DNA of 64,000 nucleotides from Paracoccaceae bacterium (GCA_012103375.1 WLWX01000001.1:2210492-2274491); one strand, 5' to 3'. Numbered from the stretch's first letter, positions 1 to 19,589 are shown. Program-made: numbers and translations. The notes: a model not told the origin generated them from the sequence alone.

Positions 1-724
1 AGCGCAGCCTTAGAGCTTCCGTTCCGTGACGTACGCCCGTGTTTGCAAGGAACAAAACATAGTTCCGCAAGGTTTCGCGCGTCGCTGCCGCTTTCTTGTT
101 GTCTGTTTTTTCGTGCCACTTGCGCAGCGCAGTGTAGATCTTCCTATATTCCGCTTCTGTGAAACTGCCTCGACTTTCGCTTTTCACCCCTTTGTTCAAG
201 AGAGTAGGGCGCATAGATTTTACAATCCAACCATTCAGCTCGGCTTCGTCCAACACCCTGTTGAGTGCAGCGTTGTGGTTGTTAATACCGCTTTGTGTGA
301 AGGCTTTTCGATGCGTCTGTGTGCGCCATCCGTCAAATTCTACCAGTGCGCGCAGGTCGATCTTGTCGATATCCGTGTTGCCAAAATATGGGATCAGCCA
401 TCGCTGTAGCGCAGAGATGTAATCTTTGAACGCCTGCTTGCCGTGGCCATCATCTAGTTGGGCCTGCATGCGTTTGATTGCATGTTCAGCGACATGTTTG
501 AATTTGCGAGTTTGAGCCGGGAGTTTGTTGTCTATGCGGGCCTGAGTCTCATAATAGAGTTTGAGCGCGCGTTCCTTGGCTTGCTCAAAGTCTTCGGTTT
601 TAGCGCTGCGTACAATGCGCTTGCCGTTGTCGAGTGTCAGACGTGCATACCAATTTGAACTGTTTTTTCGTTTATCGAGCTTCAGTTTTTTGTGCACAGT
701 TATTGTTTTGACGTCGTAGCTCAT
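1..724 (-). CDS. tyrosine recombinase / phage-type integrase, first 241 codons (3' end runs off the window start)
   Basis: Absent from the ORF track because it is open at the window edge. Manual minus-strand translation from ATG 724 gives MSYDVKTITVHKKLKLDKRKNSSNWYARLTLDNGKRIVRSAKTEDFEQAKERALKLYYE...RNYVLFLANTGVRHGTEALRLR with no stop down to position 1. The ANTG(V)R..E...LRW box fits the first catalytic Arg of tyrosine integrases. Visibly AT-richer than the rest of the window. Starts 163 nt from the 3' end of tRNA-Cys. Confidence 0.75.
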   Translation of the reverse strand, partial: MSYDVKTITVHKKLKLDKRKNSSNWYARLTLDNGKRIVRSAKTEDFEQAKERALKLYYETQARIDNKLPAQTRKFKHVAEHAIKRMQAQLDDGHGKQAFKDYISALQRWLIPYFGNTDIDKIDLRALVEFDGWRTQTHRKAFTQSGINNHNAALNRVLDEAELNGWIVKSMRPTLLNKGVKSESRGSFTEAEYRKIYTALRKWHEKTDNKKAAATRETLRNYVLFLANTGVRHGTEALRLR

Positions 725-886
725 CTTGAGCAAAATCCATAAGTGTCTGTTGCAACAGACATTACTTCAAAATTGCGAAAACATCGACACAAAACTGCAC
801 GCGGACTGTGTACGAATTGTGTACAAAAATGCAGAAACTATATCTTGTGTTTTCTTGTTAAATTATGTGGAAAATACACAAGATAG

Positions 887-960
887 TGGAGGCGAGTATG
901 AGAATCGAACTCATGTACACGGATTTGCAATCCGCTGCGTAACCACTCCGCCAACTCGCC
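887..960 (-). tRNA. tRNA-Cys (anticodon GCA), CCA encoded
   Basis: The reverse complement folds by eye as a cloverleaf: acceptor GGCGAGT/ACTCGCC, anticodon stem GCGGA/TCCGT with loop TTGCAAA, T arm ATGAG-TTCGATT-CTCAT, 3' TCCA. Length 74 nt. Confidence 0.9.
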
Positions 961-1136: not shown

Positions 1137-2597
1137 TTGGCATCCGGGGACGGCATTGTGCCGTACGGTGTTGCGTGTTTCGCGCGGCTGGATGGTTGGC
1201 AGGATCGGCCCTTGCTGGCCAATGGCCCGCGCGCGCTTTCCGCCCAGCAGATCGCCCGGCAAGCGGCATCCATCGCGCAGTATCTGCGTGATGCGGGTGT
1301 TCAAGAAGGCGATGTCGGGCTGATCTGCCTGCGCGATCCCATCGACACGATTCTGGCGTTCCTTGCGCATTGGTATCTTGGGGCCAGCCCGCTGGTGCTG
1401 GATTTTCGCCTGCGCCAGTTCCGTGCCTCGGGTGCACGGATTGCGCTGGTTGATCCGCGCGCGCCGGGCCGCGATCTGATGTCCACGCTCGCGTTTTCAC
1501 CCGATATGCTCCATGGTCCTGCGCCGCGTGACGGGCCGACGATGTCGCGGGTTGCGGCGGCGGCGCCGGCGATGATGCTCGCCTCGTCCGGGACGACCGG
1601 ATCGCCGAAAATCTATGCTGTGGATTTTCACGTGATGAAGGCCTGGGGGGCGGCGCGGGAGGTTGACTTGCCATTGCCACAGGGGCTGGCGCTATGCGCG
1701 CTTCCGCTTCAATATGTGGCGTCGCTGATGCTGGTTTTGCGCAACCTTCTTGAGGGGTTGCCGGTCCGCTTTCACCCCGTTCTGTCGGGCCATTCCGAGA
1801 TTACCGAGGCGCTGCTGCAGCACCCGGTGGTGCATACCGCGCTGCCGCCCAGCGTGATCCGGCGCATGGCCGCAGAGGTCGGGCCGCGCGATGTTCCGTT
1901 GCTAAATCACGTCCAGTCGCTTCGTTCGTCGGGCGGGCCTGCCTTGCCCGATGACAAGATCGCGGCCTTTCACAACCTGTCGAATGGATACAACATGTCC
2001 TTCGGGTCGGGCCTGTCCGGCTTTGTTTCCCTGCTGGCGGGGCAGGATGTGCTGGAGCGGCCCGAAACCTCGGGGCGCATCCATGCCGCAACACCTGTCG
2101 AGATCATTGGCCCCGACGGGCATGCGGTGCCTGCAGGAGAGTCCGGCGCGCTGCGCATCCATACCCGAACGCTCAGCCGGATCGTGGCGTCCGACCAGTC
2201 GACCAGTGAGCTTTTGGGCGATGGCTGGTGCATGACGGGCGACGTTGCGATGGTCGACGGCGACGGTTTTCTGACCATCCTGGGGCGTTCATCCGATATG
2301 ATCCTGCGCGGCGGTGTCAGCATCTCGGCGACCGAACTGGAAGCGGTTATCGCCGCCCTTGATGGTGTGCGAGAGGTTGCGGTGATCGGTGTGGATGACC
2401 CCGACCTTGGGCAAGAGGTTGGCGCGGTCGTGGTGGCACCAGGGCTGGAATTTCAGGCGCTGAGGCGGCATTGCGTTGAGCAGATTTCGCCTGACAAGCG
2501 GCCACGCCGCTTTGCGCTGGTCGACAGCCTGCCTTACAGCGCCAATGGCAAGTTGCTGCGGCGCAATATTGACGCGGCGATCTTTGGTTCGGGTTAG
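1137..2597 (+). CDS. AMP-dependent synthetase/ligase (class I adenylate-forming enzyme)
   Basis: ORF track, 486 aa. AMP-binding core motif LASSGTTGSPK. C-terminal GDGFLTILGRSSDMILRGG and ANGKLLRR are typical of acyl-CoA-synthetase-like enzymes. The TTG start at 1137 is uncertain. Confidence 0.7.
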   Translation: MASGDGIVPYGVACFARLDGWQDRPLLANGPRALSAQQIARQAASIAQYLRDAGVQEGDVGLICLRDPIDTILAFLAHWYLGASPLVLDFRLRQFRASGARIALVDPRAPGRDLMSTLAFSPDMLHGPAPRDGPTMSRVAAAAPAMMLASSGTTGSPKIYAVDFHVMKAWGAAREVDLPLPQGLALCALPLQYVASLMLVLRNLLEGLPVRFHPVLSGHSEITEALLQHPVVHTALPPSVIRRMAAEVGPRDVPLLNHVQSLRSSGGPALPDDKIAAFHNLSNGYNMSFGSGLSGFVSLLAGQDVLERPETSGRIHAATPVEIIGPDGHAVPAGESGALRIHTRTLSRIVASDQSTSELLGDGWCMTGDVAMVDGDGFLTILGRSSDMILRGGVSISATELEAVIAALDGVREVAVIGVDDPDLGQEVGAVVVAPGLEFQALRRHCVEQISPDKRPRRFALVDSLPYSANGKLLRRNIDAAIFGSG

Positions 2598-2843
2598 GCC
2601 TCATTGGTCCGGTATCCCGATTTCGACAGATTTTGTGTCGGGCAAGGTTAGTCGCAGAGGGCGCACCCCACTATAGCGTCAGCCAGAACACCGGACTCGC
2701 TTTCGATATGTCCTACGCTTGGCCAAGGGCGCACGTTCGCGCCGCGTATCCCGCGCCGGAAACGTCAGAGTTTTCCCATCCACCTCTGGACGCGGTCACA
2801 CCATCGGTTAGCATCCGCGCGACACCATCAAAGGACCCCGAGT

Positions 2844-3522
2844 ATGAAACGAACCCGGATCAACGACATCATGGCCGCCGCGGACGAGATGATCCGCCAC
2901 TACGGCTTTGTCCTTCCGCCCTTCGCCTATTGGTCCCCGGATGAGTTCCGCGCGCGCCGATAAGGACCGGATCTTCGCGTCCCGCATGGGCTGGGACATC
3001 ACCGACTATGGTGAGGGGCGCTTTGACCAGCTGGGGCTGTTCCTGTTCACGCTCAGAAACGGTGATCTGGCCGACCTGCAGCGCGGCGGCGGCATGTGTT
3101 ACGCCGAAAAGCTGCTGATCAGCCGCCAGGATCAGCTGAGCCCGATGCACACCCATGTGATCAAGGCCGAAGACATCATCAACCGGGGCGGGGCGACGCT
3201 GGCGATCCAGTTGTTCGGGTCCAACGACGATGGCAGCTGTTCCGACGACCGCGGCGGGCGGGTGATCTGCGACGGCATCCCGCGCGATTACGGTCCCGGA
3301 GAAGTGCTGAAATTCGCCCCCGGCGAAAGTGTCACCCTGATGCCCGGCGACTGGCACGCTTTCTGGGGTGAGGGTGGCGATGTGTTGATCGGAGAGGTTT
3401 CCACCGTCAACGACGACGTCACCGACAACCTCTTCCGCGAACCCATCGGCCGCTTTTCACAAATCGACGAAGACGTGGCCCCGACGCATCTGCTGGTCAG
3501 CGATTACGACCGCTGGCTGTGA
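2844..3522 (+). pseudogene. D-lyxose/D-mannose family sugar isomerase (cupin), apparent +1 frameshift
   Basis: Frame 1 (2844-2963) encodes MKRTRINDIMAAADEMIRHYGFVLPPFAYWSPDEFRARR*. The ORF-track frame 2908-3522 continues ...DKDRIFASRMGWDITDYGEGRFDQLGLFLFTLRNG...YAEKLLISRQDQLSPMHTHVIKAEDIINRGG...VNDDVTDNLF. Together the two frames cover the family end to end. The frame switch falls in the cgcgcgcgcc run at about 2949-2960. Confidence 0.7.
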
Positions 3523-4397
3523 TCCGGGCAACTGTTCAGCTGATCGGTGTGGCGCTGGTCTGTGCGCCGCTGGTCTGTGCGCCGCCGCTGCATGCGTCCG
3601 AAGGGCCGTGCGACAATCGCCATTTCTGTACCGTGGTCGAGGATGACGCCAGCGGAGCGCGTCTGGTGGGCGAGAATTTGAACCCGGTTGCGCCGGTGAC
3701 CGTCAAGCTTTGGCCCCAGGCGCAGGGGGATGACCTGCGCAAAGACCGCCGCGACCACGCCTTGCCGACCGTGGTGATTGATGCCGGAACGCGCAAAGTG
3801 CTGATGCCGCTCAGGCGTGATGCCGACGGTGTGGTCGAAGATCTGCCGCAGGTCGACTGGACCTTCGGCGACTATCGCGCCACGCCCGACCCGGACAAGC
3901 CGCACCTGCTGCCATGGCCCCAGAACGTGCTCTTTGGCAAGCTGCGCTATTTCGTTTCGCAAGGCTGTGATGAGGCGTTCAGCCATAACGGCAACCGCGC
4001 CAACGCCACTGATTTTTCGATGCCCGAAGGCGCGCGTATCGCCGCCGCACGTGGTGGCGTGGTGTTAGAGGTAGAGGAGCATTTCGACAAGGGCGGCGAG
4101 GATGAGGCGCTGGTGGACGCGGCAAATGTGGTTCAGATCCTGCACGAAGACGGCTCAATCAGTATGTATGCGCATTTGCAAAAAGACGGTGCGCTGGTGG
4201 ATGAAGGTGACCACGTGATCGCTGGCGATGTGATCGGGCTTGCCGGAAACACCGGATTCTCGACCGGTCCGCATCTGCATTTCGAACGCTATATCGCGGG
4301 CGAAGACGGTTTCATCCTGTCGCTACCCACCCGGTTCCGCCATTGGGGAGGGGAGGTTTCCTGCCCCAAGACCGGGTCGAGCCTGGGCGCGAAATAG
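3519..4397 (+). CDS. M23 (LytM-type) family metallopeptidase, secreted
   Basis: ORF track, 292 aa. Hydrophobic N-terminal signal-like segment. C-terminal LAGNTGFSTGPHLHFE and ATDFSMPEG signatures. The GTG start overlaps the upstream stop (GTGA). Confidence 0.8.
   Translation: MIRATVQLIGVALVCAPLVCAPPLHASEGPCDNRHFCTVVEDDASGARLVGENLNPVAPVTVKLWPQAQGDDLRKDRRDHALPTVVIDAGTRKVLMPLRRDADGVVEDLPQVDWTFGDYRATPDPDKPHLLPWPQNVLFGKLRYFVSQGCDEAFSHNGNRANATDFSMPEGARIAAARGGVVLEVEEHFDKGGEDEALVDAANVVQILHEDGSISMYAHLQKDGALVDEGDHVIAGDVIGLAGNTGFSTGPHLHFERYIAGEDGFILSLPTRFRHWGGEVSCPKTGSSLGAK
3554..3583 (+). repeat. perfect 15-bp tandem duplication (gctggtctgtgcgcc x2) inside the M23 signal peptide
   Basis: Read directly from the sequence. 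It encodes LVCAP-LVCAP and is in frame. Confidence 0.9.
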
Positions 4398-4573
4398 CGC
4401 GGTCGGGACAATTCGGCGCGCGCCGTCGCCGGGGTTGCCCGTGGTGCCAACAGAAAATTTCGTTACCGGGCCTGACCCTCTGGCAATGGACGCCCGGATT
4501 CTGATACACGGGGCTAACGACGCTGATGGCGCGACGCCCAAGGCGGCTGCGAGACGGAAAGAAGGTTGCAGGC

Positions 4574-5785
4574 ATGATGGACGGCAATTTCGATGACGCG
4601 CTGACCGGCGAACAGAAAATCCGCAACTTCAACATCAACTTCGGCCCGCAACACCCTGCGGCGCATGGGGTTTTGCGTCTGGTGCTGGAGCTGGACGGAG
4701 AGATTGTCGAACGCTGCGACCCCCACATCGGCCTGCTGCACCGTGGCACCGAAAAGCTGATGGAATCGCGGACCTATTTGCAGAACCTGCCGTATTTCGA
4801 CCGGTTGGATTACGTCGCGCCGATGAATCAGGAACATGCCTGGTGTCTGGCCATCGAAAAACTGACCGGAACGCCGGTGCCGCGCCGGGCCAGCTTGATC
4901 CGGGTGCTTTATTCCGAAATTGGCCGTATTCTCAATCACTTGCTGAACGTGACGACCCAGGCGATGGACGTCGGCGCGTTGACACCGCCGCTGTGGGGGT
5001 TCGAGGAGCGCGAAAAACTGATGGTGTTCTATGAACGTGCCTGCGGGGCGCGGCTTCACGCCGCCTATTTCCGCCCCGGCGGCGTGCATCAGGACCTGCC
5101 GCCCGAGCTGATCGACGATATCGAGGCTTGGGGCAAAGAGTTCCCTAAGGCGCTGAATGACATCGACGGGCTGCTGACCGAAAACCGGATATTCAAACAG
5201 CGCAACTGCGACATCGGCGTGGTGAGCGAGCAGGAGATCCTCGACTGGGGCTTCTCAGGCGTGATGGTGCGCGGATCGGGCCTGGCCTGGGATCTGCGGC
5301 GCAGCCAGCCGTATGAGCTTTATGACGAATTCGAATTTCAGATCCCGGTGGGCAAGAACGGCGATTGTTATGATCGCTATCTGTGCCGCATGGCCGAGAT
5401 GCGGGAAAGCCTGAAGATCATCCAGCAGACCATTGATAAACTGCGCGATTGTCCGGGGCCGGTGATGACCCGTGGCAAGATTTCCCCGCCTGATCGGGGC
5501 GAAATGAAAACCTCGATGGAGGCGCTGATCCATCACTTCAAGCTTTACACCGAAGGCTTCCACGTCCCGGCCGGCGAGGTGTATGCCGCCGTCGAAGCCC
5601 CGAAGGGCGAATTCGGCGTCTATCTGGTCGCCGACGGCACCAACAAACCCTACCGCGCCAAACTCCGCGCGCCGGGGTTCCTGCACCTGCAGGCGATGGA
5701 TCACGTCGCGACCGGGCATCAGCTGGCGGATGTGAGCGCGATTATCGGGACGATGGATATCGTGTTCGGAGAAGTGGATCGGTGA
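4574..5785 (+). CDS. nuoD: NADH-quinone oxidoreductase subunit D (49-kDa subunit)
   Basis: ORF 4526-5785 trimmed to ATG 4574 ([36 protein letters not shown]...), preceded by GGAAAGAAGG. Full length, ending [14 protein letters not shown]. Confidence 0.95.
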
Positions 5786-6237
5786 GCAGGCTGCGGATTG
5801 GCCTACTGTTTCTCATCCTCGCCGTAGGCGCTTTGATCGCGACCCCATTTATGCGCGGGACAACCACGCTCTATGAGGTTTCAGTCACCTGTAACATCTC
5901 CATGGAAGCGCTTGACCAACCTAGTGCTGCACTTACCCACGAAAATTCTGTATGTTTCACGAAAGAGTTGGCGGATGAATGGCGCTACATTATTGGTGAA
6001 TACGGCTGGTTCAGCGGCACAACCGTTATCTCGGATTCATTTCGGCCGGACGATCTGTTCGTGGCCATCGCAAATAGCCAAACACGCCTGAGTCCTGGTT
6101 ATGCGCGTTTTTGCAGTGAGATGATTCAGTCTGCTTTGGCAAATCAATCCGCTGAACTTGTTAATATTGCAAGATTGGACCCGCGTGGTGCGGCTTCATT
6201 GACGTGCCCATCCGAGGAGTCCAAAGGTGCCACGTAG
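5782..6237 (+). CDS. hypothetical membrane-anchored/secreted protein (URF between nuoD and nuoE)
   Basis: ORF track, 151 aa. GTG start overlaps the nuoD stop (GTGA). N-terminal hydrophobic segment [16 protein letters not shown]. Visibly lower GC than its neighbours. No family recognised. Confidence 0.5.
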
Positions 6238-6399
6238 CCATGTCTCAGATCAGCTTGATGACTTAATATTCGTTCGCTCCCAATTGGTACTTCGTCGAGA
6301 CGCGGGTAACTTTGTTGCTAACAGCCTGTCGGGCCAACACAATCCTAGGGACCTCGGGTATCTTCCACCGAGCACCGTTTCGATTGCTGTATTGACGGC

Positions 6400-6753
6400 A
6401 TGACCCTCCTCGTCACCCTCTGCGGGATCGTCACGATCCTGATCCTCGGCTACATGGCTTTCTTGTTCTGGCGCGACCCAGAGGACGGGTTGGCGCAGAC
6501 CACTCATCGGGTTGAATTGCTGCCCCGCGTGATGGCCGACCGATACACGGCCTTCGCGATCCTCGCGGTGGTTCTGACGCTTTACGGCAACCTCTGGCTT
6601 ATGGCGGCGCTGTTTGGTGTTTGCGCCTTCATGGGATTTGCGGATGGTCTGATCTACAAGCGGGCCGGGGTGGCGCATATGAAGCACACCGCCTCGGGCA
6701 TCTTGTCGGCGGGGGCTTTGGGGGTCACATTGATCGCGATTGCGCTGGGTTGA
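6400..6753 (+). CDS. small multi-pass membrane protein (URF in nuo cluster)
   Basis: ORF track, 117 aa with about four hydrophobic segments. Same strand as the nuo genes, in the nuoD-nuoE gap. Confidence 0.55.
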   Translation: MTLLVTLCGIVTILILGYMAFLFWRDPEDGLAQTTHRVELLPRVMADRYTAFAILAVVLTLYGNLWLMAALFGVCAFMGFADGLIYKRAGVAHMKHTASGILSAGALGVTLIAIALG

Positions 6754-6834
6754 GGCGCCGCAGATGTTGACACCGCCGCCGCTAGGGGCGACACGGATTA
6801 TCAACAAGAAAGACACGCTTTCCGGAGCCCGCCC

Positions 6835-7998
6835 ATGCTGCGCCGCCTTGCTGCTGAACAACCTGCTGCCTTTGCCTTCACGCCTGCGAACCAGAAATGG
6901 GCCGAAGCGCAGATCACCAAGTTTCCCGAAGGCCGCCAGGCCAGCGCGATCATCCCGCTTTTCTGGCGCGCGCAGGAGCAGGAGGGCTGGCTGTCCCGTC
7001 CGGCGATCGAGCATATCTCGGACATGCTGGGGTTGGCCCATATCCGGGGGCTGGAGGTTGCAACCTTTTACTTCATGTTCCAGCTGCATCTGGTTGGTTC
7101 TGTGGCAAATATCCAGATTTGCGGCACAACCTCGTGCATGATCTGCGGGGCCGAGGATCTGGTCGCCGTCTGTCAGGACAAGATTGCCGCCAAGCCGCAT
7201 ACATTGTCGGCGGATGGCAAGTTTTCCTGGGAAGAGGTTGAGTGTCTGGGCGCCTGCGCAAATGCGCCGATGGCGCAGATCGGCAAGGATTATTACGAAG
7301 ACCTGACCGCCGCCCGGTTGGGAGAGATCATTGACGAACTCGGCGCCGGGAAGGTTCCCGTTCCGGGACCGCAAAACGGGCGCTATGCGGCGGAACCCCT
7401 GTCGGGGCTGACCAGCCTGAAGGATCACGCGGCAGGTCGGGCGCAATATAACGCCTCGGTCCAGCGGGCGGTGGATCTGGGCGAAACGGTCAAGCGCATT
7501 GACGGAACCGAAGAACCGTTCCGCGCGCCCTGGCAGGGTGGGGCAGAACAGAAAACGCCAAAACACGCCGCGCGTGAACGTGGCGAGGGCGTGACCCGGG
7601 CCGAAGCGGATACCCTGGAAACCGCAAGGCCAACCGAAGGCAACGTCGCACCAGCACCCAAGACCAGTGCCGCGCGCCCGAAACCGACACCGGCCAGCGC
7701 GCCGCAGGCAAGCGCGTCCTCACCCGGGACAAAGCCTGAGATGCTCAGCGAATCGCGCGGTGGAGACGCCGATAACCTCAAACATATCAAAGGGGTCGGA
7801 CCGAAACTTGAAGCGTTGCTTCATCGCCTCGGCGTGTTCCATTTCGACCAGATCGCCGGTTGGTCGGCAGACGAAGTCGCCTGGGTGGATGACAACCTGG
7901 AAGGGTTCAAGGGCCGGGTTGAACGCGACAATTGGGTCTCACAGGCGAAAATCCTTGCCGATGGAGGCGAGACAGAATTCTCCGCACGCGCTAAGTAA
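6835..7998 (+). CDS. nuoE: NADH-quinone oxidoreductase subunit E with long C-terminal extension
   Basis: ORF track, 387 aa. 2Fe-2S cysteines [15 protein letters not shown] ... [12 protein letters not shown]. Followed by an Ala/Pro-rich linker and a terminal IKGVGPK...FHFDQIAGW...[14 protein letters not shown] domain. Confidence 0.9.
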
Positions 7999-8064
7999 GG
8001 GTGCTAAGGTATCACCCGGGCGTCTGAATTTCGGATACCTGACAGGGAGAGGACGGAGTTCAAC

Positions 8065-8673
8065 ATGGAAGATGAGAATACCCGCAGATTGGTAATCCCG
8101 GTTGGTGTAGGCATCGTGGTGTTTCTGCTGCTTTGGCTGCTTGGAATATTTGGGTTCTGGGGATCGCTGGCGATCGGTGCGCTGGTCGCATTGCTGATCC
8201 TGGCCTATCAGCGCTTCAGCGCGGCCGATGACGCTGGCGGAATGGGCGCAAGTTCCGGTGGCGCGATGACGCCGCAGTCCGAAGCCCCGCCCACAAGCGC
8301 CGCACCCAAGCCATCCGAACCGACCGAGCCGAACCCGGCCCCCGCACCGCCGCCCAAACCCGAGGCCCCTGCGCCCGAGCCCAAGCCAATGCCAGAACCC
8401 GATCCCGCGCCCGCCGCCCCGTCGTCTGGTGAGGCGGATCGCCCTGCGGCGCTGAGCGAGGCCCGCGCTGGCGGTGCCGACGATCTGACCAAGATCAAGG
8501 GTGTCGGTCCGAAGATGAACGCGATGCTGAACGGCATGGGGTTCTATCACTTCGACCAGATCGCCGCCTGGACCGAAAAGGAAGTCGCCTGGGTGGATGA
8601 TAACCTGGCAGGGTTCAAAGGCCGCGTCTCCCGTGACAAATGGGTCGAACAGGCCCGCGAACTGGCCAAGTAA
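8065..8673 (+). CDS. membrane protein with Pro-rich linker and a NuoE-C-terminal-like domain
   Basis: ORF track, 202 aa. RBS GGGAGAGGACGGAG. Two N-terminal TM segments. The C-terminal ~65 aa ([59 protein letters not shown]) closely parallel the NuoE tail. Confidence 0.65.
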   Translation: MEDENTRRLVIPVGVGIVVFLLLWLLGIFGFWGSLAIGALVALLILAYQRFSAADDAGGMGASSGGAMTPQSEAPPTSAAPKPSEPTEPNPAPAPPPKPEAPAPEPKPMPEPDPAPAAPSSGEADRPAALSEARAGGADDLTKIKGVGPKMNAMLNGMGFYHFDQIAAWTEKEVAWVDDNLAGFKGRVSRDKWVEQARELAK

Positions 8674-8676
8674 GTC

Positions 8677-8898
8677 TTGGCCGATGATCGCCAGCTTGCG
8701 ACTGCCCGGCGGGCGCGCACGGTAAGTCTGGTGATTGCCGGCACGATGCTGCTATGGCTTGCAGCACAGTGGATCGGCCCGGCGGCAGGGATGCCGGGGC
8801 GGTTCGCATTTCTGATCGACCTGGCGGCGCTGGCCGCGTTTAGCTGGGCGATAGTGAACATCTATTGGATCTGGCGGGAACGTCAGAAGGACAGCTGA
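8677..8898 (+). CDS. small two-TM membrane protein (DUF5337-like position between nuoE and nuoF)
   Basis: ORF track, 73 aa with a TTG start and two hydrophobic segments. The family name is from memory of Rhodobacterales nuo annotations and is unverified. Confidence 0.5.
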   Translation: MADDRQLATARRARTVSLVIAGTMLLWLAAQWIGPAAGMPGRFAFLIDLAALAAFSWAIVNIYWIWRERQKDS

Positions 8899-8910
8899 AA
8901 GTTAACGGCA

Positions 8911-10206
8911 ATGCTCGACGATAAAGACCGCATCTTTACAAACATCTACGGGATGCACGACCGGACCCTGGCGGGCGCGAAGGCGCGCGGGCATTGGGAC
9001 GGCACTGCGGGTCTGATCCAGAAGGGTCGCGACTGGATCGTGGAACAGATGAAGGCCTCGGGCTTGCGTGGTCGTGGCGGGGCAGGGTTTCCAACCGGCC
9101 TGAAGTGGAGCTTCATGCCCAAGGAAAGTGACGGCCGCCCGGCGTATCTGGTGGTCAATGCCGACGAATCCGAACCCGGCACCTGCAAAGACCGCGAAAT
9201 CATGCGCCACGATCCGCACACGCTGGTCGAAGGCTGCCTGATCGCCAGTTTCGCGATGAATGCGCACGCCTGCTATATCTACATTCGCGGAGAATACATC
9301 CGCGAGAAGGAAGCGCTTCAGACAGCAATTGACGAGGCGTATGACGCAGGGCTGGTTGGCAAGAACGCCTGTGGCAGCGGATGGGATTTCGACATCTATC
9401 TGACCCACGGCGCGGGCGCCTATATCTGTGGTGAGGAAACCGCGCTTCTGGAAAGTCTTGAAGGCAAGAAAGGCATGCCGCGGATGAAGCCTCCGTTCCC
9501 AGCCGGGGCCGGGCTTTATGGGTGCCCGACGACTGTGAATAATGTGGAATCGATTGCCGTGGTGCCGACGATCCTGCGGCGCGGACCGGAATGGTTCGCA
9601 GGCTTTGGCCGCCCCAACAACGCCGGCACCAAGCTGTTCGCGATCAGCGGTCACGTGAACAACCCCTGCGTCGTTGAAGAGGCGATGAGTATCAGTTTCG
9701 AGGAATTGATCGAAAAGCATTGCGGCGGCATTCGCGGTGGCTGGGACAACCTGAAAGCGGTGATCCCCGGCGGATCATCGGTCCCCTGTATTCGCGGTGA
9801 GCATATGCGCGAGGCGATCATGGATTTCGATTACCTGCGTGAACAGCGCAGCGGCCTTGGGACGGCTGCGGTGATCGTGATGGACAACGACACCGACATC
9901 ATCAAGGCGATCTGGCGGTTGGCGAAGTTCTACAAGCACGAGTCATGCGGCCAGTGCACGCCGTGCCGTGAAGGCACCGGCTGGATGATGCGGGTCATGG
10001 ACCGGCTGGTCACCGGAGAGGCCGAGGTCGAGGAAATCGACATGCTGCTGGACGTGACCAAACAGGTCGAAGGCCACACGATCTGCGCGCTAGGTGACGC
10101 AGCGGCCTGGCCGATCCAGGGCCTGATCCGCAACTTCCGCGATGAAATCGAAGATCGCATCAAGCACAAGCGCACCGGACGGATGAGTGCGATTGCGGCG
10201 GAATAG
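8911..10206 (+). CDS. nuoF: NADH-quinone oxidoreductase subunit F (51-kDa subunit)
   Basis: ORF track, 431 aa. [13 protein letters not shown] (NADH/FMN site) and [12 protein letters not shown] (4Fe-4S). Confidence 0.95.
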
Positions 10207-10253: not shown

Positions 10254-11156
10254 TCAGCAGTTGATAATCTCGTCCAGCGGGCTTCCCGGCGGCGCAGTCG
10301 AGCCTGAGATTTTGTGCCACAGGTGAAGTGCGTCTGTGCGTGGTGTTGTCAGATCCGCGATACAAAGCTCGGGATCGCTCAGCTGGACAGCATGCTGACA
10401 GTAGAGTGGATAGAAGCGATCGATCTTGGACACTTCCGTCCACAGATCCAGACGTTTGACCAGATGCGTAATCAAATGCGGCCCCCAGATACCCCAGCCA
10501 AGCGCCTCGACGCTGACCTTTTTGCCGAAGATGCGAGCGCGTTTCATCCTTCGCTGCCTTGATTCACGAAACCAGGGCGGGATGAAGTGATAATTTTGGG
10601 TCGCCTCACGCAGGAGTTCGGAAAACGGGCTGTTTGGTGGGTAGTTCAGAATGGCTCCGTTGACAAAATTCTCTCGCTCGGCCCCCATGATATAGGGCGT
10701 TTCCGTGATCGGACGCAGGCAAAATATGTCACAGTCCGCATAGGTGCCAAATCCTTCCGCGATAAGCCGATACCGGTAACGGTCTGATCCCAGCCACCCC
10801 GTCCGGCAGGTCGGCGGGGCGTTCGTAGCAATGCATCGTAACGGCGTGCCCGTGGCGCAGGAAGGATCGCACGCAGGCTGCGTGGATGGGGCCGATTGTG
10901 TTGAAAAACTCCGTTTTAGGGCCTGAACGATGATTTTTCTTTCCATGCAGCCCGATCCTAAATTTTTGGCGCGGGGGTCGGCCCAAATCGCCTACATGCG
11001 CTCACGCGCAGCCATGCGCTGTCTCGTGGTCAAAGCTTTCCGACTATTTCGCTTCATAGGTTTTCGCAAGAAATCCGCGACGCTCTGATTTCGGAGTTTT
11101 TCAACACAATCGGCCCAAAACAGACCCGTGCCAGAACATATTGATATCGGCGGGCA
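10254..11156 (-). pseudogene. DXD-motif sugar-binding glycosyltransferase, disrupted by MITE copy 1 plus an internal frame change
   Basis: ATG 11156 encodes MPADINMFWHGSVLG to the right of the MITE. Deleting the element plus one GGCC continues the frame as PIHAACVRSFLRHGHAVTMHCYERPADLPDGV, which then stops at 10729. The remaining ~210 codons (SDRYRYRLIAEGFGTYADCDIFCLRPI ... WGPHLITHLV) lie in another frame (ORF 10254-10946). The switch is near 10781-10806. Confidence 0.65.
10894..11110 (+). mobile_element. MITE-like element, copy 1 (217 bp)
   Basis: GATTGTGTTGAAAAACTCCG ... CGGAGTTTTCAACACAATC. One T shorter in the right TIR than the other copies. Flanked by GGCC/GGCC. Confidence 0.85.
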
Positions 11157-11398
11157 TAAATCTCTCAAACAAAACTGACGCGACCGACTAACAACAAGCG
11201 TCGGGCCGAAGTGCAAGGGCATTCTGCTGCGCCCAGGTCTGCGGTTTCGGTGCATTTGTGGCGGATTGGCGTGAAAGATTTTGCGCAGAAGGCCGCGCGT
11301 ACGAAATACCGGGGTGCGAAACCGCTGGTCTTCGCATTGTCGTCAGGTGACATTGTGGTTTAACCACACCAATCGGACGACACAGAACGCGAACAGTC

Positions 11399-11638
11399 AT
11401 GAAAAAACTCCGCAACCTTTGGGATTCCATCCTGTCGTTCATTGCCGCGATCCTGACGGGGGTGATCTGTTTCGTGCCGGTCTGGGCGTCTTACCGGGCG
11501 ATTGACGACGGGTTGGTGCCAATCTGGGTTTGGGGGGCGATCATTGCGCTGGGTCTGGTTGGTCTGGTGATGATCGCGGCGTTCCTGAGGAAGGCGCGCG
11601 ACGGGGTGTCGCCGTTGCGCGACAGAAAGCGAAGGTAA
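11399..11638 (+). CDS. small two-TM membrane protein, unknown function
   Basis: ORF track, 79 aa. Its stop overlaps the next start (TAATG). Confidence 0.45.
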   Translation: MKKLRNLWDSILSFIAAILTGVICFVPVWASYRAIDDGLVPIWVWGAIIALGLVGLVMIAAFLRKARDGVSPLRDRKRR

Positions 11639-12051
11639 TGATGAAATCGAAAATTCTTGCGGGGGCCGCGCTGGTGGCGCCCATACTGGCCGGTCAGGTG
11701 CAGGTTGACAGCCATCTGCCGGAGGCCCCGGAGTATTATCTTGAAACGGTGATCGGTGTGTCGCTGGCCGAGCAGTATGTCTGGCATTGCCCGGACTTGC
11801 GCGTGAACGCAGAGGCGTTCGGCGCGGCCTATGCCGTCGTGTTGGAGCGGCTGGCAGAGATCGGCGTGCCATCGGATGCGCCGCACGAGCACATGCTTTT
11901 GCCACCAGCCGAGGAAACCGACGCTGTCATCCGCGACATGCTGGCGCGGAACGAAGACGCGGATGATCCGGGTGCGGCCTTTTGCGCCGAGGCCCGTGCA
12001 GAAATGGCCGCCAGTTCCGTGGTCGGCACATTCTTGGCCGAGGGCGAATGA
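11638..12051 (+). CDS. secreted protein, DUF5333-like paralog 1
   Basis: In frame within ORF 11530-12051, starting at ATG 11638 (MMKSKILAGAALVAPILAG signal). Shares the ...C....(V/I)......DDP...(F/Y)CA..R.E(M/I)...S.VG..L layout with the 12736-13143 protein. Confidence 0.55.
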   Translation: MMKSKILAGAALVAPILAGQVQVDSHLPEAPEYYLETVIGVSLAEQYVWHCPDLRVNAEAFGAAYAVVLERLAEIGVPSDAPHEHMLLPPAEETDAVIRDMLARNEDADDPGAAFCAEARAEMAASSVVGTFLAEGE

Positions 12052-12506
12052 AACAGCCTGCTGGACATCATCTGGCGCAGCTGAACGTCGGGCGTCTGGT
12101 TGCGCCGACAAACGATCCGCGTGTTGCCGAATTCATGGCGAACCTCGATCGGATCAACGGCTTGGGCAAGCGGATGCCGGGGTTTGTCTGGATCATGGAG
12201 GGCTCGGGCGAGCCCGGGACCGGCAACACCGAGACGGGGCTGGATGGCGATCCGCAGTTCGTGGCCAATCTGACGGTGTGGGAGTCGCTCGCAGCGCTGG
12301 AAACCTTCGTTTTCAACACGCTCCACTTCAAGTTCTTTGAGCGCCGAAAGGCGTGGTTTGAACCGTCGGATGGGATGCATTTCGTCATGTGGTGGGTGCC
12401 GGAAGGCCATCGCCCGACGCTGGACGAAGCCCGCGCGCGGCTGGCGCATCGGGCGGAACATGGCGACAGCGATCACGCCTTTGGCTGGGATTGGGGTGCT
12501 GATTAG
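12048..12506 (+). CDS. DUF3291 domain protein, paralog 1
   Basis: ORF 11982-12506 trimmed to ATG 12048 (ATGA overlap with the upstream stop). HLAQLNVGRLVAP.NDPRVAEFMANLDRIN...PGFVW...NLTVWESLAALETFVF...WF...VMWWVPEGHRPTLDEARARL matches my recollection of the DUF3291 family. Confidence 0.75.
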   Translation: MKQPAGHHLAQLNVGRLVAPTNDPRVAEFMANLDRINGLGKRMPGFVWIMEGSGEPGTGNTETGLDGDPQFVANLTVWESLAALETFVFNTLHFKFFERRKAWFEPSDGMHFVMWWVPEGHRPTLDEARARLAHRAEHGDSDHAFGWDWGAD

Positions 12507-12735
12507 GCGGTGTGGTAAGCGGTCAATACGCTTGGGCCTGAAACGAACCTGCCCGATCACAGTGCCGAGGGTCACAGCCATCCGGAGACGGATCGCTCAG
12601 GCGCGCAAGTGCGCCGGGCCCTGGCCTTAAGCAATCGCGCGCCCATGAACGAAATTGTCATTGCCCTTCGGTTTCGCCATTCGATAGATTGGGCACGTTG
12701 TTGATGTGCCAGTATTATTTGTTCGGAGTGACCCC

Positions 12736-13143
12736 ATGCGTCCCTTTATCCTGTCGACCTGTCTTGCCGCCTGTATTGCCTTGCCTTTGTCGGCACAGGA
12801 CCGTCCGGGCCTGGAATTCGAGGCGGAGATTGATAACTCGCTGCTGATCGTGATGACGGCCGATCTGATCCGCAAGAATTGCGAGGCGATTGATGCCCGC
12901 AAGATCAAGGCAGTTTTGTATATCAAGGGGATCGAACGGCGGGCGCGCGCGCTCGGGTATTCGAAGAAAGAGATCGAGCATCACGTTGAAGATGAAGACC
13001 AGAAGGCGCGCCTGAAGAAGATCGCGCTTGGGTATCTTGGCTCCAAGGGGTTGGTGGCGGACGATCCGGCGAGTTATTGCGCGGTCGGACGCTCTGAAAT
13101 CTCGGCAAAAAGCACTGTTGGCAGGCTGCTGAAAGGTGGCTGA
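12736..13143 (+). CDS. secreted protein, DUF5333-like paralog 2
   Basis: ORF 12706-13143 trimmed to ATG 12736 (GGAG 8 nt upstream). Signal peptide MRPFILSTCLAACIALPLSAQ. The family name is from memory. Confidence 0.6.
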   Translation: MRPFILSTCLAACIALPLSAQDRPGLEFEAEIDNSLLIVMTADLIRKNCEAIDARKIKAVLYIKGIERRARALGYSKKEIEHHVEDEDQKARLKKIALGYLGSKGLVADDPASYCAVGRSEISAKSTVGRLLKGG

Positions 13144-13848
13144 GTGGACGCGCCGGACAAAACGACCGAGATCGCGCAGATCAACGTCGCCCGGTTGCTG
13201 CACCCCTGGGGCGACGCGCGGGTTTCGGGGTTTACCAATGCGCTGATTGTGTTGAAAAACTCCGTTTTAGGGCCTGAACGATGATTTTTCTTTCCATGCA
13301 GCCCGATCCTAAATTTTTGGCGCGGGGGTCGGCCCAAATCGCCTACATGCGCTCACGCGCAGCCATGCGCTGTCTCGTGGTCAAAGCTTTCCGACTATTT
13401 CGCTTCATAGGTTTTCGCAAGAAATCCGCGACGCTCTGATTTCGGAGTTTTTCAACACAATCCGCTGAACCGGGTCAGCCGGGTGGCGCATCGCTCGCCG
13501 GGGTTCGTGTGGCAGCTTGAGGTCGGTCAATCGGCCCGCCCTGACAATGATCCCGATCAGGTGTTTGGGGTGGACCCATGTTTGGCTGTGACCCTGTCAG
13601 TCTGGAAAACGGCTGCGGACTTGCGGCGTTTTGTCGAGGATACCGTGCATGGCACATTCACAAAGCGCCGTGCAGAGTGGTTTGTGGCGTCAAACGGGCC
13701 GGCCTACGCGCTGTGGCCGGTAGCGGCTGGGCGTCGCCCGATGCTGGCCGAGGGCAAGGCGCGGCTAGAGGATCTGGCAAAGAACGGCTCAACCGCGCGC
13801 GCGTTTGATTTTGAATGGGTTGAGCGTGCCGACGTGTTGCTGGGTTAG
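13144..13848 (+). pseudogene. DUF3291 domain protein, paralog 2, split by MITE copy 2
   Basis: GTG 13144 encodes VDAPDKTTEIAQINVARLLHPWGDARVSGFTNAL up to the MITE. After the MITE plus CGCT the same frame continues NRVSRVAHRSPGFVWQLEVGQ...LSVWKTAADLRRFVEDTVH...ALWPVAAGRRPMLAEGKARL to stop 13848. The whole aligns with paralog 1. Confidence 0.75.
13245..13462 (+). mobile_element. MITE-like element, copy 2 (218 bp)
   Basis: Perfect 20-bp TIRs. Flanked by CGCT/CGCT. Confidence 0.85.
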
Positions 13849-13948
13849 GTTTCTGCTGGGCATCGAGAACCGGATTTACGTGACCGAAGCCGGGCAGGGG
13901 CCTGCCTGGCGGCTTTCTGTCACTGGAATGGTGCCGCCTGAACGCGCC

Positions 13949-14710
13949 CTACGTCCCAAACCGCGCCTGAAACGCTTCGCGATCCGCGCCGCTCAGCGCA
14001 CGCAGCGGCGGGCGCATGGTTGTCCAACCGGGATCGCCGCTTTGTGCCATCAGGGCCGTTTTCAGCGCCGGGATGACCGGGTGGGCGACGATGAAGTCGA
14101 CGTCGGCGCTGAGCGCCGCATCCTCAGCCTGCGTTTCAAACAGCGTTTGCATCCGCCGGGGGTAGATATTCGCCATGCCACAGATTGACCCGGCACCGCC
14201 AAGTGCGGCGGCTTTGTGCAACAACCGCTCATCCCCGACCAGAACCGGGATCGTGCGGCTTTCCAGCAGGGTGCGCGTGAAATCCCACTGACCGGCGCTG
14301 TCTTTCAGGGCGATGATCCGGTCGGGGAATGCCTCGAACAGGCGTGCGACCAGCTTGGGCGACAGTGGCACCTGCGTGACCTGGGGGATGTGGTACAGGA
14401 TGAACCGGGCCTGCGGTGGGGCTGCGTCAAACACCGATTTGTGCCAGTCAAACAGCGCCGCATCGCCCGGATCCTTGAAATAGAACGGCGGCAGAAGCAG
14501 GAAATCCGTGATCCCAAAGCTGACCGCCTGCTGCACCTGCGCGAGTGTGTCGGCCACAGCGGATGCACACAGGCCGATGGTCATCACATCGGGCGACACG
14601 CCGCTGTCGATCATGGCTGCAATCGTCCGGGCGCGTTCGTCAAATCCGATGGATGCGCCTTCGCCTGTGGTTCCGAACAGCGTCACTCCATTGGCTCCGC
14701 TTTCCAGCAT
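13949..14710 (-). CDS. dihydrodipicolinate synthase/N-acetylneuraminate lyase family protein (5' end problematic)
   Basis: ORF track, 253 aa starting MLESGANGVTLFGTTGEGAS. The same frame stays open upstream to 14854 and there encodes the conserved ...FGLSAALLTPFHADFSLNL... N-terminus, but it contains no ATG/GTG/TTG. The nearest ATG (14823) is in another frame. Confidence 0.65.
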   Translation of the reverse strand: MLESGANGVTLFGTTGEGASIGFDERARTIAAMIDSGVSPDVMTIGLCASAVADTLAQVQQAVSFGITDFLLLPPFYFKDPGDAALFDWHKSVFDAAPPQARFILYHIPQVTQVPLSPKLVARLFEAFPDRIIALKDSAGQWDFTRTLLESRTIPVLVGDERLLHKAAALGGAGSICGMANIYPRRMQTLFETQAEDAALSADVDFIVAHPVIPALKTALMAQSGDPGWTTMRPPLRALSGADREAFQARFGT

Positions 14711-14938
14711 CGTCTTCGCGTGGCTGCAAAACAGGGGCAGATTCAGGCTGAAATCTGCATGAAACGGGGTCAGAAGCGCGGCTGAGAGTCCGAAATGTGC
14801 GATGTTGGTCCCCGTTCGATCATATTGAAGGATAAGTGAAATCTGCGCGTCATGCTATTGGCTGCGGGCGCGAGGTCAACGTATCATATTGGCATGGAAT
14901 GCTGCGCCCATGCGCGGCCTCATGCGGGGATCACCATT

Positions 14939-15820
14939 ATGCAAAGGGTCATTTGCGCCGGATTGATTGCCGCTGACCTTGTGTTTGATGTGGATGCGTT
15001 CCCTGTGAAAGGGTCGAAACACCGCGCGGGTGGGGCGCGGTTGATCACCGGTGGCGGGGCGCTGAATGCAGCCTCGGCAATTGCAGCACTTGGAGGGGTG
15101 GCCAGTCTGGCCGGGGTGGTCGGCGACGATATGTTCGGGGACTTCCTGCGCCGGGCGATCCATGATCGCGGGATTGACGACCGGTATCTGACCACCGTGA
15201 CCGGGGCGGGCACGTCGTGTTCGGCCAATCTGATCTCGCCCGATGAGGATCGGACCATCATCAATCATCGTGATGGCAGTCTGACGCCAGATCTTGCGGA
15301 TCTGCCAGCGAATTTCCCGTTCGATGCCGCATTGGTCGACACCCGCTGGGCGGAAGGGGCCGCGCATGTTGTCGCTGCGGCGCGCAAGGCGGGTAAGCCT
15401 GCCGTTGTGGACGCCGAGGCACCGGTGGCCCTTGCCCGCACAGCGTTAGAGGGTGCGAGCCATGTCGTCTTCTCTGAGCAGGGGTTGGCGGATTTTGCTG
15501 GGGCCTGCGACGGCGCGGCCCTGGCGCGCGCGACGACCCAACTGTCGGGTTGGTGCGCCGTCACCCGTGGTGGCGCGCCGGTCCTGAGCCATGACGGGCA
15601 GCGCTTGAGCCAGCATCCGGTGTTCCCGGCGGTTGCGCTGAATACGCTTGGGGCCGGTGATGTCTGGCACGGCGCATTCGCCCTGGCGCTGGCACGTCAG
15701 ATGCCAGAACCTGACGCGGTGCGCTTTGCAAATGCCGCCGCATCGTTGAAAGTGCGGCGTCCGGTTGATGATGAGACTTGGCCCGGCGCAGCGGAAGTTG
15801 CGGCCCTGATTGAAGGATGA
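14939..15820 (+). CDS. PfkB-family carbohydrate kinase
   Basis: ORF 14852-15820 trimmed to ATG 14939 (MQRVICAGLIAADLVFDV...). ...TGGGALNAA... and the C-terminal NTLGAGDVWHGAF signature fit ribokinase/KDG-kinase-like enzymes. Confidence 0.75.
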   Translation: MQRVICAGLIAADLVFDVDAFPVKGSKHRAGGARLITGGGALNAASAIAALGGVASLAGVVGDDMFGDFLRRAIHDRGIDDRYLTTVTGAGTSCSANLISPDEDRTIINHRDGSLTPDLADLPANFPFDAALVDTRWAEGAAHVVAAARKAGKPAVVDAEAPVALARTALEGASHVVFSEQGLADFAGACDGAALARATTQLSGWCAVTRGGAPVLSHDGQRLSQHPVFPAVALNTLGAGDVWHGAFALALARQMPEPDAVRFANAAASLKVRRPVDDETWPGAAEVAALIEG

Positions 15821-15827
15821 TCCCACA

Positions 15828-16742
15828 ATGCAAACGCCCGCGCAGGTGTTGACGCTGAAAGGCGCGCCCGTTCCGACCCAACAGGTGGGGGCGTTGCGTG
15901 ATGCAGATCCGGGTGGCGATCTGGATCAGCAACTTACCACTGACAGCTACCTGCTTTTGCGGGGTGCCCATGACCCGGTCGAGGTTGAGGCCGCACGCCA
16001 GGAAGTGCTGCACCGGCTGGACGAGGTTGGCGAAGTGGCCGCGCCCGTGGAGCAGGGTATCGCGTCGGGCGTTTCCACGCGCCGCGCGCAGTATCCGACG
16101 ACACAGGAACTGGGCGCGTTCTGGCGATCTGTCAGCGAAGGTGACGCACTGCGCCGGGTCATAAACGGGCCGCGCATCACGGGGCTGATGGACAGGCTGT
16201 TCGCAACCCCCTCCAAACCATTCGATTTTGCCTGGCTGCGCGCCATGACCGCCGGGCGGGCCAGCCCGTTGCATGTGGATCACCCCTATATGAACCGGGG
16301 CACCGTCCGTCTGGTCACTTGCTGGACGCCGTTGACACCGATCACCCCGAAGGACGGTCCGCTGTATGTTCTTGAGGGGTCGCACAACTGGGCAGACATC
16401 CGCCAGCAATTTGAAGGCCACGATGTGGATCGCGACCCATCCCGCCCCGGCCATATTGAGGGCGATGCGATCGCCCTGACCTCAGCCCGGCGCAGCCGGT
16501 TTCTGACCACCGAATTCGCGCAAGGCGATTGCCTGATCTTTGGCATGTTCACCGTGCACGGTTCCTTTGACAACAACTCAGCAAATAACCGGATCCGGTT
16601 GTCCTGCGATACCCGCTTCCAACCCGCAGACGCGCCAATGGACGAACGATTTGCGGGGCCGGATCCCTCAGCGCATGGCGGTCTGGGATATGGGTGCCTG
16701 TCAGCATCATTGCCGCTGAGCGAAGCCAGCACGGCGCGCTGA
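15828..16742 (+). CDS. phytanoyl-CoA dioxygenase (PhyH) family Fe(II)/2-oxoglutarate oxygenase
   Basis: ORF 15810-16742; ATG 15828 preferred. ...SPLHVDHPYM... (HxD) and ...FTVHGSFDN...R... are spaced as in PhyH/EctD-like enzymes. Confidence 0.7.
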   Translation: MQTPAQVLTLKGAPVPTQQVGALRDADPGGDLDQQLTTDSYLLLRGAHDPVEVEAARQEVLHRLDEVGEVAAPVEQGIASGVSTRRAQYPTTQELGAFWRSVSEGDALRRVINGPRITGLMDRLFATPSKPFDFAWLRAMTAGRASPLHVDHPYMNRGTVRLVTCWTPLTPITPKDGPLYVLEGSHNWADIRQQFEGHDVDRDPSRPGHIEGDAIALTSARRSRFLTTEFAQGDCLIFGMFTVHGSFDNNSANNRIRLSCDTRFQPADAPMDERFAGPDPSAHGGLGYGCLSASLPLSEASTAR

Positions 16743-16743
16743 G

Positions 16744-17643
16744 GTGGCGAATGCAGTGATGAGGGGCATTGTCCCCAGCCTAAACACCGCGTTCCTGGGT
16801 GATGGCAGCGTCGATCTGACCTCAATGCGCCGATTGGTCCATCACACGGTTGCGGCAGGCTGTGGCGGCATGCTGGGTCTTGCGGTCGCGGGCGAGCATG
16901 CGACCCTGTCCATGGATGAGAAGTTGCAGATCATCGACGCTGTAAGCGACGCCAATGCGCAGCGCATCGCCTTCATCGTCAGTGTGACAGCGCCGGATAT
17001 GGCGGACAGCATCGCGTTGTCGCAGGCAGCCCGCACCGCTGGCGCCGATGGGATCTGCGTTCAGATGCCCGACGGGCTTGACCGCGCCGGGATGCTGGGC
17101 TTCCTGCGCGAACTGGCCCCTCACGGGCCGGACACCCTTATGGTGCAGGATCTGGACTGGGTGGGGGGCGGTCTGTCGGTGGAAGACATCGTCTTTCTGT
17201 TCGAAAACGTCGCGCAGTTTTCCTGGCTGAAGATTGAAACGGCGCAGGCCGGTGCCAAATACTCGGCCGTGCTGAAGGCGACGGGCGGGGCGCTGAACGT
17301 CTGTGGCGGCTGGGCGGTGACCCAATTGATGGATGCAATGGCCCGGGGCGTGCATGCCTTCATCCCGACCGGGTTGGAAAGCATCTATGTCGAGATTTTC
17401 GACCGCTACCACAGCGGAGACCCCGAAGCGGCGCGCCAATTGTTCGAGCGTGTCTTGCCGATCCTCAACTTCTCGAACCAGCATATCGGCACTTCGATCC
17501 GGTTCTTCAAACAGCTGCGTAAGGCTGAAGGTCTGTTTGAACACGACGTCTGCCGGTCAAAGGATGCCCGGTTTGATGCGGTTCAGGAGGTCGAGGGGCG
17601 CCATGCCCTTGGATTGGCGCTGGACCTGCTGCGCCGGACCTGA
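16744..17643 (+). CDS. dihydrodipicolinate synthase family protein (second copy, divergent)
   Basis: ORF track, 299 aa with a GTG start 1 nt after the upstream stop. IVPSLNTAFLGDGSVDL...GCGGMLGLAVAGEHATLS matches the family N-terminus. Confidence 0.7.
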   Translation: MANAVMRGIVPSLNTAFLGDGSVDLTSMRRLVHHTVAAGCGGMLGLAVAGEHATLSMDEKLQIIDAVSDANAQRIAFIVSVTAPDMADSIALSQAARTAGADGICVQMPDGLDRAGMLGFLRELAPHGPDTLMVQDLDWVGGGLSVEDIVFLFENVAQFSWLKIETAQAGAKYSAVLKATGGALNVCGGWAVTQLMDAMARGVHAFIPTGLESIYVEIFDRYHSGDPEAARQLFERVLPILNFSNQHIGTSIRFFKQLRKAEGLFEHDVCRSKDARFDAVQEVEGRHALGLALDLLRRT

Positions 17644-17685
17644 CCTGCGCAAGCCGGGCCTGCGTTCCGGGCCTGTGGCCATGCG

Positions 17686-18006: not shown

Positions 18007-18084
18007 CGTCAGCGCCTACCGGACAGATTTAGGTGTTTGATCAACGGAGGATTTCTGGTTCATCGAAGCCATTATGGAGCGAAG

Positions 18085-19523: not shown

Positions 19524-19589
19524 ACGGCGGCAGATGCATGATTAGTGCAAGATGTTCGGATGGGAAACCACAGAGGTGCGGATTTGGCC

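Follow-up and report, generated by a model that had tools for sequence, protein, structure and literature searches.

The genes for respiratory complex I (nuo or nqo) of alphaproteobacteria canonically form one cluster interspersed with unidentified reading frames (URFs), as in nqo1-14 of Paracoccus denitrificans and nuoA-N of Rhodobacter capsulatus. Split sets are classically represented by those of Rickettsiales and Aquifex aeolicus and by the cyanobacterial ndh genes. [quoted passage not shown] According to a prokaryote-wide survey of 2025 (PMC12361115), both split and single-cluster complex I gene sets occur within most clades. The survey cites a study whose title says that the order of the nuo genes is dispensable for assembling complex I in E. 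coli (Oppermann et al., 2022, BBA Bioenergetics 1863:148592). Here we describe a stretch of 64,000 nucleotides ('the window', C1:2210492-2274491) from the genome of a marine roseobacter (G000), in which nuoD, nuoE and nuoF stand apart from all other complex I genes. The genome, a 4.01-Mb contig and a 10.8-kb contig with a completeness of 99.96%, was compared by blastn synteny with a genome of the same genus (G001, hereafter the congener) and a genome of another genus (G002).

One complex I gene set in three pieces

Genes in the window were called by profile searches against Pfam and NCBIfam. The profiles bore out the initial annotation, in which nuoD, nuoE and nuoF had been read as full-length genes with URFs between them. 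No other complex I subunit is encoded in the window, as had also been noticed there; nuoC and nuoH gave single hits, at C1:1287213 and C1:3649402, respectively. The initial annotation had further proposed that the cluster is broken into at least three pieces, and these were located on one contig, all on the + strand, at 1.286 Mb (nuoABC), 2.215 Mb (nuoDEF) and 3.647 Mb (nuoG-N), that is, 0.93 and 1.42 Mb apart. The first piece consists of nuoA, nuoB, nuoC and a URF for a sulfotransferase-like protein of 269 aa (1286219-1288634, +), and the third of nuoG-URF-nuoH-URF-nuoI-URF-nuoJ-K-L-M-N followed by birA, coaX and the RNase J gene (3646983-3661481, +). NCBIfam equivalog or subfamily hits covered essentially the whole profile for NuoA to NuoM, and NuoN matched PF00361 over the full domain. 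We conclude that this genome has one complete complex I set, with all 14 subunits intact, in three pieces; the canonical layout of one co-directional cluster is absent.

The copy number of the subunits was assessed by tblastn with NuoD, NuoE and NuoF of the window against the whole genome. Each had one copy; no second copy was detected, and besides these the search returned only one pair at 3.383 Mb, NuoE/F-like but distant (26-38% identical). NuoD was 93% identical to NuoD of the congener, which indicates vertical inheritance. A foreign island inserted into the operon was considered and rejected: the 0.93 and 1.42 Mb between the pieces consist of core chromosome with homology to regions located elsewhere in G001 and G002.

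In the congener, the cluster is contiguous (G001 C9:328693-354200) in the order nuoABC, sulfotransferase URF, nuoDEF, URFs, nuoG-N and birA, with a nucleotide identity of 80-89% to the three pieces of G000. G002 holds one block of 34.5 kb collinear with the congener, and the same 34.5 kb is found at four separate places in G000. To extend the comparison, 80 Roseobacter-group loci were fetched around nuoF and their gene order was read as far as each contig reaches; within that reach, all 80 showed the order nuoA-B-C-D-E-F-G-H-I. Among 29 further relatives' loci checked for the adjacency of nuoC and nuoD, the two genes adjoin in 28, and in the remaining one the contig stops a short way upstream of nuoD. 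Block X, the group of genes found before nuoA in the congener, now lies at 1.499-1.511 Mb in G000, and homologues of these genes are found upstream of nuoA in 43-53 of the 80 Roseobacter-group loci. On the other hand, nhaA, the present neighbor of nuoA in G000, was never found upstream of nuoA in these 80 loci. This nhaA gene (Na+/H+ antiporter, C1:1284763-1286178), which is directly upstream of nuoA, is itself split by a frameshift into open reading frames (ORFs) of 292 and 176 aa and is thus a further pseudogene located at a rearranged junction.

Thus, the nuo neighborhood is stable in all sampled genomes except G000. The contiguous cluster in the relatives indicates that the split is a derived state, with three cuts (X/nuoA, URF/nuoD and URFs/nuoG). 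A split arrangement shared with close relatives as an ancestral feature, which the initial annotation had named as the observation that would speak against its reading, was not found: the cluster is contiguous in G001 and in more than 100 other genomes. Taken together, these results make it very probable that a single-copy, vertically inherited nuoA-N cluster was broken up specifically in this lineage.

Anatomy of the cuts

The ancestral order, which survives in G001 and G002, is the X genes, nuoABC with the sulfotransferase URF, nuoD-URF-nuoE-URF-nuoF with further URFs, nuoG-N, birA and coaX. In G000, cut 1 lies upstream of the promoter of nuoA, cut 2 separates the URF from nuoD, and cut 3 separates the last URF from nuoG. 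The congener retains both uncut parent sites of each cut, which indicates a reciprocal exchange in direct orientation. Each cut would then be one half of such an exchange with an unrelated intergenic site, designated Yend/Z, Q and R for the first, second and third cut, respectively. In cut 1, the parents X/nuoA and Yend/Z gave the new junctions nhaA/nuoA and X/Z, and contig C9 of the congener joins the counterparts of 1282765-1283898 and of 1511303 onward. In cut 2, the parents URF/nuoD and Q (between the lyxose isomerase gene and kynA) gave URF/DUF1761 and M23/nuoD; contig C18 of the congener joins the counterparts of 1305052-1289910 and of 2214013-2211375 of G000. In cut 3, the parents URFs/nuoG and R (the island by tRNA-Leu) gave the junction of the DUF3291 gene with a gene similar to dihydrodipicolinate synthase (DHDPS-like) and the junction dctM/nuoG. 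Here, contig C11 of the congener joins the counterpart of 3629719-3642210 of G000, a variable stretch of 8 kb, tRNA-Leu and the counterpart of 2230448 onward, and G002 has the same adjacency.

All six junctions lie in intergenic spacers and truncate no gene, and each of these reciprocal junctions occurs exactly once in G000. BLAST searches down to a word size of 9-11 detected no repeat at any of the six, and no junction sequence has another copy in the genome. The partner junctions share no core or microhomology except a 9-mer in reverse orientation, which is roughly at chance level (about 0.05 by our own estimate). The junctions are narrow: that between the URF and the DUF1761 gene spans at most 20 nt and that between X and Z about 25-36 nt, and the left breakpoint of the nuoDEF fragment falls within about 50 nt past the stop codon of the M23 peptidase gene. 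Homology to the contiguous cluster of the congener extends from about 4450/4474 to 13143 of the window, and the second DUF3291 paralog continues to 13848. The junctions that the initial annotation had placed at 4398-4573 and 13849-13948 are essentially right.

Upstream of the cut genes, the ancestral spacer was kept for about 100-120 nt at nuoD and for 106 nt at nuoG. The gap between the URF and nuoD is about 150 nt in the congener versus 16-24 nt in most relatives, and the cuts fall where the genus has long or URF-containing spacers. They ignore the functional modules of the enzyme, with D set apart from B and C, and G from E and F. A possible relic of the 3' end of nuoC in the nuoD spacer was examined and rejected, as the best match was 12 aa with an E value of 0.74, which is not significant.

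The Q site lies 3.4 kb from tRNA-Cys. The congener also has tRNA-Cys, the ligase gene and the lyxose isomerase gene at its Q locus, where the M23 peptidase gene has no counterpart. The uncut Q site of the congener (C18; L118 17915-20000) carries a gene for an HxlR-type regulator and a DUF1330 gene. In G000, the M23 peptidase gene is found on one side of the cut, and a DUF1761 gene and an AHSA1/SRPBCC gene are found on the other. Variation at this site predates the exchange.

At the R site, the island was itself divided. The genes dctPQM for a tripartite ATP-independent periplasmic (TRAP) transporter went with nuoG (3.643-3.647 Mb), and the genes for the DHDPS-like protein, PfkB and PhyH remained next to tRNA-Leu in the window (13949-17700). 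The part now before nuoG (C1:3642732-3646739) consists of a fucosyltransferase-like gene and TRAP dctPQM, and the island is of a sugar-acid type; its DHDPS-like gene is short at the N-terminus. A DNA search of the congener with 13480-17700 of the window gave no match, because this DNA belongs to the strain-specific island. The search for dctP in the congener was uninformative, since its only copy is 71% identical and lies in an unrelated context. The margin of the ancestral R locus (C1:3641170-3642210) encodes a highly acidic protein of 346 aa with about ten tandem repeats of the TEAATEMAED type, and this gene is kept in both G001 and G002.

The features of the nuoDEF fragment and its surroundings are listed in Table 1. 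Everything that had been listed upstream in the initial annotation (M23 peptidase, lyxose isomerase pseudogene, ligase, tRNA-Cys and integrase) was also recovered. The frameshift in the isomerase gene is genuine and lies near 2935-2957, with the N-terminus encoded at 2841-2957 in a different frame. The 202-aa URF, the C-terminal extension of NuoE (7700-7998) and a third locus, C1:3925415-3925615, have a domain of about 65-120 aa in common (53-57% identity), which in NCBIfam is also recognized C-terminally in some L21, S2 and phasin models.

Table 1. Features of the nuoDEF fragment and its surroundings (positions in the window).
Feature	Position	Strand	Remarks
Tyrosine integrase, 3' part	1..733	-	PF00589, E 3e-8; full ORF of 425 aa extends beyond window start; adjoins tRNA-Cys
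tRNA-Cys(GCA)	887..960	-	Part of ancestral Q locus
AMP-dependent acyl-CoA ligase	1137..2597	+	Profile match; left side of Q locus
D-lyxose/mannose isomerase pseudogene	2841..3522	+	Left side of Q locus
M23 peptidase gene	3519..4397	+	Profile match; co-oriented with nuoD, now directly upstream
Left junction, Q-left / nuoD	4398..4450		Unique sequence, no repeat
Ancestral spacer kept upstream of nuoD	4451..4570	+	Alignable to sulfotransferase-nuoD spacer of G001
nuoD	4571..5785	+	NF004739, 618 bits; longest ORF from 4526; likely start at ATGATG (4571/4574), as in relatives
URF, 151 aa	5782..6237	+	Start overlaps nuoD stop; no family match
URF, 117 aa	6400..6753	+	Weak DUF4267 match
nuoE, long form, 387 aa	6835..7998	+	PRK12373, 579 bits; Ala/Pro-rich C-terminal extension
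URF, 202 aa	8065..8673	+	C-terminal domain 53-55% identical to NuoE C-terminal extension
nuoF	8911..10206	+	PRK13596, 852 bits
MITE copy, 224 bp	10891..11114	+	Inside degraded opposite-strand gene just after nuoF
Ancestral nuoF-nuoG spacer URFs (small URF, DUF3291, DUF5333)	11375..13143	+	Kept between nuoF and nuoG in G001
Second DUF3291 paralog	13144..13848	+	Abuts preceding URF; MITE-interrupted; last gene of nuoDEF fragment
Right junction, nuo URFs / R-right	13849..13948		Unique sequence; GC-rich hairpin 13889-13910
Strain-specific island by tRNA-Leu	13949..19069		DHDPS-like gene, PfkB kinase, PhyH gene, 1.3-kb IS; absent from G001
tRNA-Leu(TAA)	19438..19523	-	Anchor of ancestral R locus
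MITE copies in window	10891-11114, 13245-13460, 19587-19810, 35284-35507, 59480-59713

Genome reshuffling, repeats and alternative explanations

Rearrangement relative to the congener is not confined to the nuo genes. When contig C9 of the congener (384 kb) is mapped onto G000, it falls into about 30 blocks of about 7 kb (median), scattered over 0.58-3.68 Mb. Orientation was kept in 30 of the 36 aligned pieces, and the majority of the block ends lie away from repeats. These data show that translocation of small blocks without inversion dominates the rearrangement between the two genomes. With a break density of about 80 per Mb, chance would place about one break in the 12-kb stretch between nuoA and nuoG; by our estimate, three breaks are a high number and not an extraordinary one (Poisson, about 0.06). 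The cumulative GC skew of G000 is irregular, with the global minimum at about 0.27 Mb, the maximum at about 2.45 Mb and several blocks of the wrong sign, one of which (3.55-3.70 Mb) holds nuoG-N. The gene dnaA, at 3.52 Mb, is near a local skew minimum and far from the global one.

The exchanges between repeat-free spacers, with a GC-rich hairpin near each cut, could be the footprint of an unrecognized process that shuffles kilobase-scale blocks in this roseobacter lineage, as set against ordinary IS-driven inversions or inversions symmetric about the origin and terminus. Although about 30 further small-block breaks per 384 kb would be in line with such a process, we consider it unlikely. If it were true, nuoDEF would be wired to the M23 peptidase promoter, and nuoG-N to a TRAP operon on a sugar-acid island.

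A more ordinary explanation is homologous recombination between IS or MITE copies, with the elements at the junctions lost or decayed later. The initial annotation had regarded the repeat load seen in the window as a plausible cause of the break-up, and the load is indeed heavy. One MITE of 224 bp, which has terminal inverted repeats (GATTGTGTTGAAAAACTCCG ... CGGAGTTTTTCAACACAATC) and target duplications of 4 bp, is present in 187 full-length copies with a mean identity of 99.1%, whereas 504 kb of the congener and the 80 outgroup loci contained none. This MITE expansion is a very recent, lineage-specific burst. Repeats account for 8.8% of the chromosome. There are about 180 IS copies, which include a 1.08-kb IS present about 99 times and several families (1.2-1.56 kb) with about 24-29 members each, and pseudogenes are present. 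Furthermore, a repeat is located 4-5 kb from four of the junction sides, and synteny-block ends lie within 500 bp of a multi-copy repeat slightly more often than random positions do (25% versus 16%).

However, this enrichment is not significant at 36 breakpoints. A repeat-mediated rearrangement needs a repeat copy at both new junctions, and no such copies were seen at any of the six; accordingly, the search for MITE or IS copies at the flanks of the nuoABC and nuoG-N pieces, which the initial annotation had suggested, found none at their junctions. Since the MITE burst is recent, decay of junction copies past recognition is implausible. The only adjacent MITE (about 13245-13460) cleanly splits the ORF of a DUF3291 paralog, at a distance of 86 nt from where the congener-homologous part ends on the right. 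It is flanked by an intact CGCT target-site duplication, which indicates a simple insertion rather than a recombination scar. The repeat load is thus real, but its recombination appears an improbable source of the three cuts.

A chimeric contig, in which the assembler joined unrelated regions and the true cluster is contiguous, was the other explanation offered in the initial annotation, and the extreme richness of the genome in repeats would favor it. Indirect evidence makes it unlikely. The junctions lie in unique sequence and not in repeats, where assemblers err, and all six reciprocal junctions are present exactly once. Undoing the joins yields several separate circles instead of one chromosome. 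The two contigs are practically complete, and hundreds of repeats with 99-100% identity were resolved. In addition, the ends of the large contig overlap by 24.5 kb (C1:1-24491 versus 3986732-4011077), with 100% identity except for one indel of 139 bp (12849-12987). The overlap represents untrimmed circular ends, so that the true chromosome is about 3.987 Mb, and together with the resolved near-identical repeats it points to a long-read assembly.

When the three exchanges are undone, all segments form one circle except 2224440-3646739 (1.42 Mb), which closes on itself through the Rl/Rr adjacency seen in G001 and G002. That this segment was once a separate circular replicon, which entered the nuoF-nuoG spacer through one crossover at its R site, would produce exactly the observed pair of direct-orientation junctions but is hardly credible, because contig C9 of the congener interleaves blocks of the segment (2.25-2.53 and 2.95 Mb) with the rest of the chromosome, the segment carries dnaA, and rearrangements that went unseen, given about 80 breakpoints per Mb, are a simpler explanation of the closed circle. 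Given this break density and the interleaving in C9, further rearrangements that are no longer visible likely link the segment to the rest of the chromosome.

Expression of the pieces and comparison with known systems

As a consequence of the break-up, complex I would now be produced from three transcription units. The region upstream of nuoA contains a promoter-like sequence, TTGACC-N17-CTAGGT, which is conserved with the congener. The nuoDEF piece is directly behind the co-oriented M23 peptidase gene and nuoG-N directly behind the co-oriented dctM, and no terminator-like hairpin was predicted in either the M23-nuoD or the dctM-nuoG gap. This arrangement makes read-through from the upstream genes possible. 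An alignment of the upstream regions of 13 URF-carrying relatives revealed no conserved internal promoter before nuoD, and promoter scans were uninformative. Transcription of nuoDEF and nuoG-N presumably depends on read-through or on promoters in the retained ancestral spacer of 100-120 nt.

The lineage-specific break-up may have proceeded by exchanges independent of repeats, which are best read as illegitimate recombination. The nuo cuts would be part of a genome-wide reshuffling on the kilobase scale, in a lineage that underwent IS/MITE bursts and pseudogene formation. Only events that cut URF-containing spacers, and so left all 14 structural genes whole, would have survived. Relaxed selection for cluster integrity in a drifting, repeat-laden lineage is the simplest reading.

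Several observations weigh against this scenario. The enrichment of repeats at breakpoints is weak, so that a causal role of the repeat bursts in the reshuffling is not demonstrated. Gene order outside the nuo neighborhood is poorly conserved even between G001 and G002, and part of the reshuffling is therefore a family-wide trait. The self-closed segment means that there must have been further unseen rearrangements or another mechanism. Finally, the route proposed for the expression of nuoDEF and nuoG-N is purely inferred.

The break-up implies that a large stoichiometric membrane enzyme can lose its operon linkage entirely, over megabases, within the lifetime of one species. It offers a natural experiment on the worth of operon integrity, in which one may ask how expression is balanced over three units and whether cuts are confined to URF-containing spacers.

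The set of G000 agrees with the cluster of Paracoccus and Rhodobacter in its 14 subunits and their internal order, with birA and coaX downstream and with URFs in similar positions, that is, after nuoC, nuoD, nuoE, nuoF, nuoG, nuoH and nuoI. Unlike that cluster, it has lost its contiguity, and each piece lies in a foreign neighborhood. With the complex I sets of Rickettsiales, Aquifex and cyanobacteria it shares the dispersal of intact genes over several loci. It differs from them in that the split is recent and confined to one species, in a family with more than 100 sampled genomes in which the cluster is contiguous, and in that both parent sites of every cut are identifiable in a congener. 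As far as the title of the E. coli study goes, G000 is similar in encoding an intact enzyme, here at three loci, whereas the separation in G000 is natural rather than engineered, is on a megabase scale (0.9 and 1.4 Mb) and removes co-transcription. Like the genomes of Orientia, Shigella and B. pertussis, G000 has hundreds of near-identical mobile elements, pseudogenes, an irregular GC skew and loss of synteny, but its nuo breakpoints are free of repeats. This is not a new kind of system, since split nuo sets are already known; the case of G000 is unusually recent and well resolved, and its split is more interesting as a marker of extreme fine-scale reshuffling of a genome.

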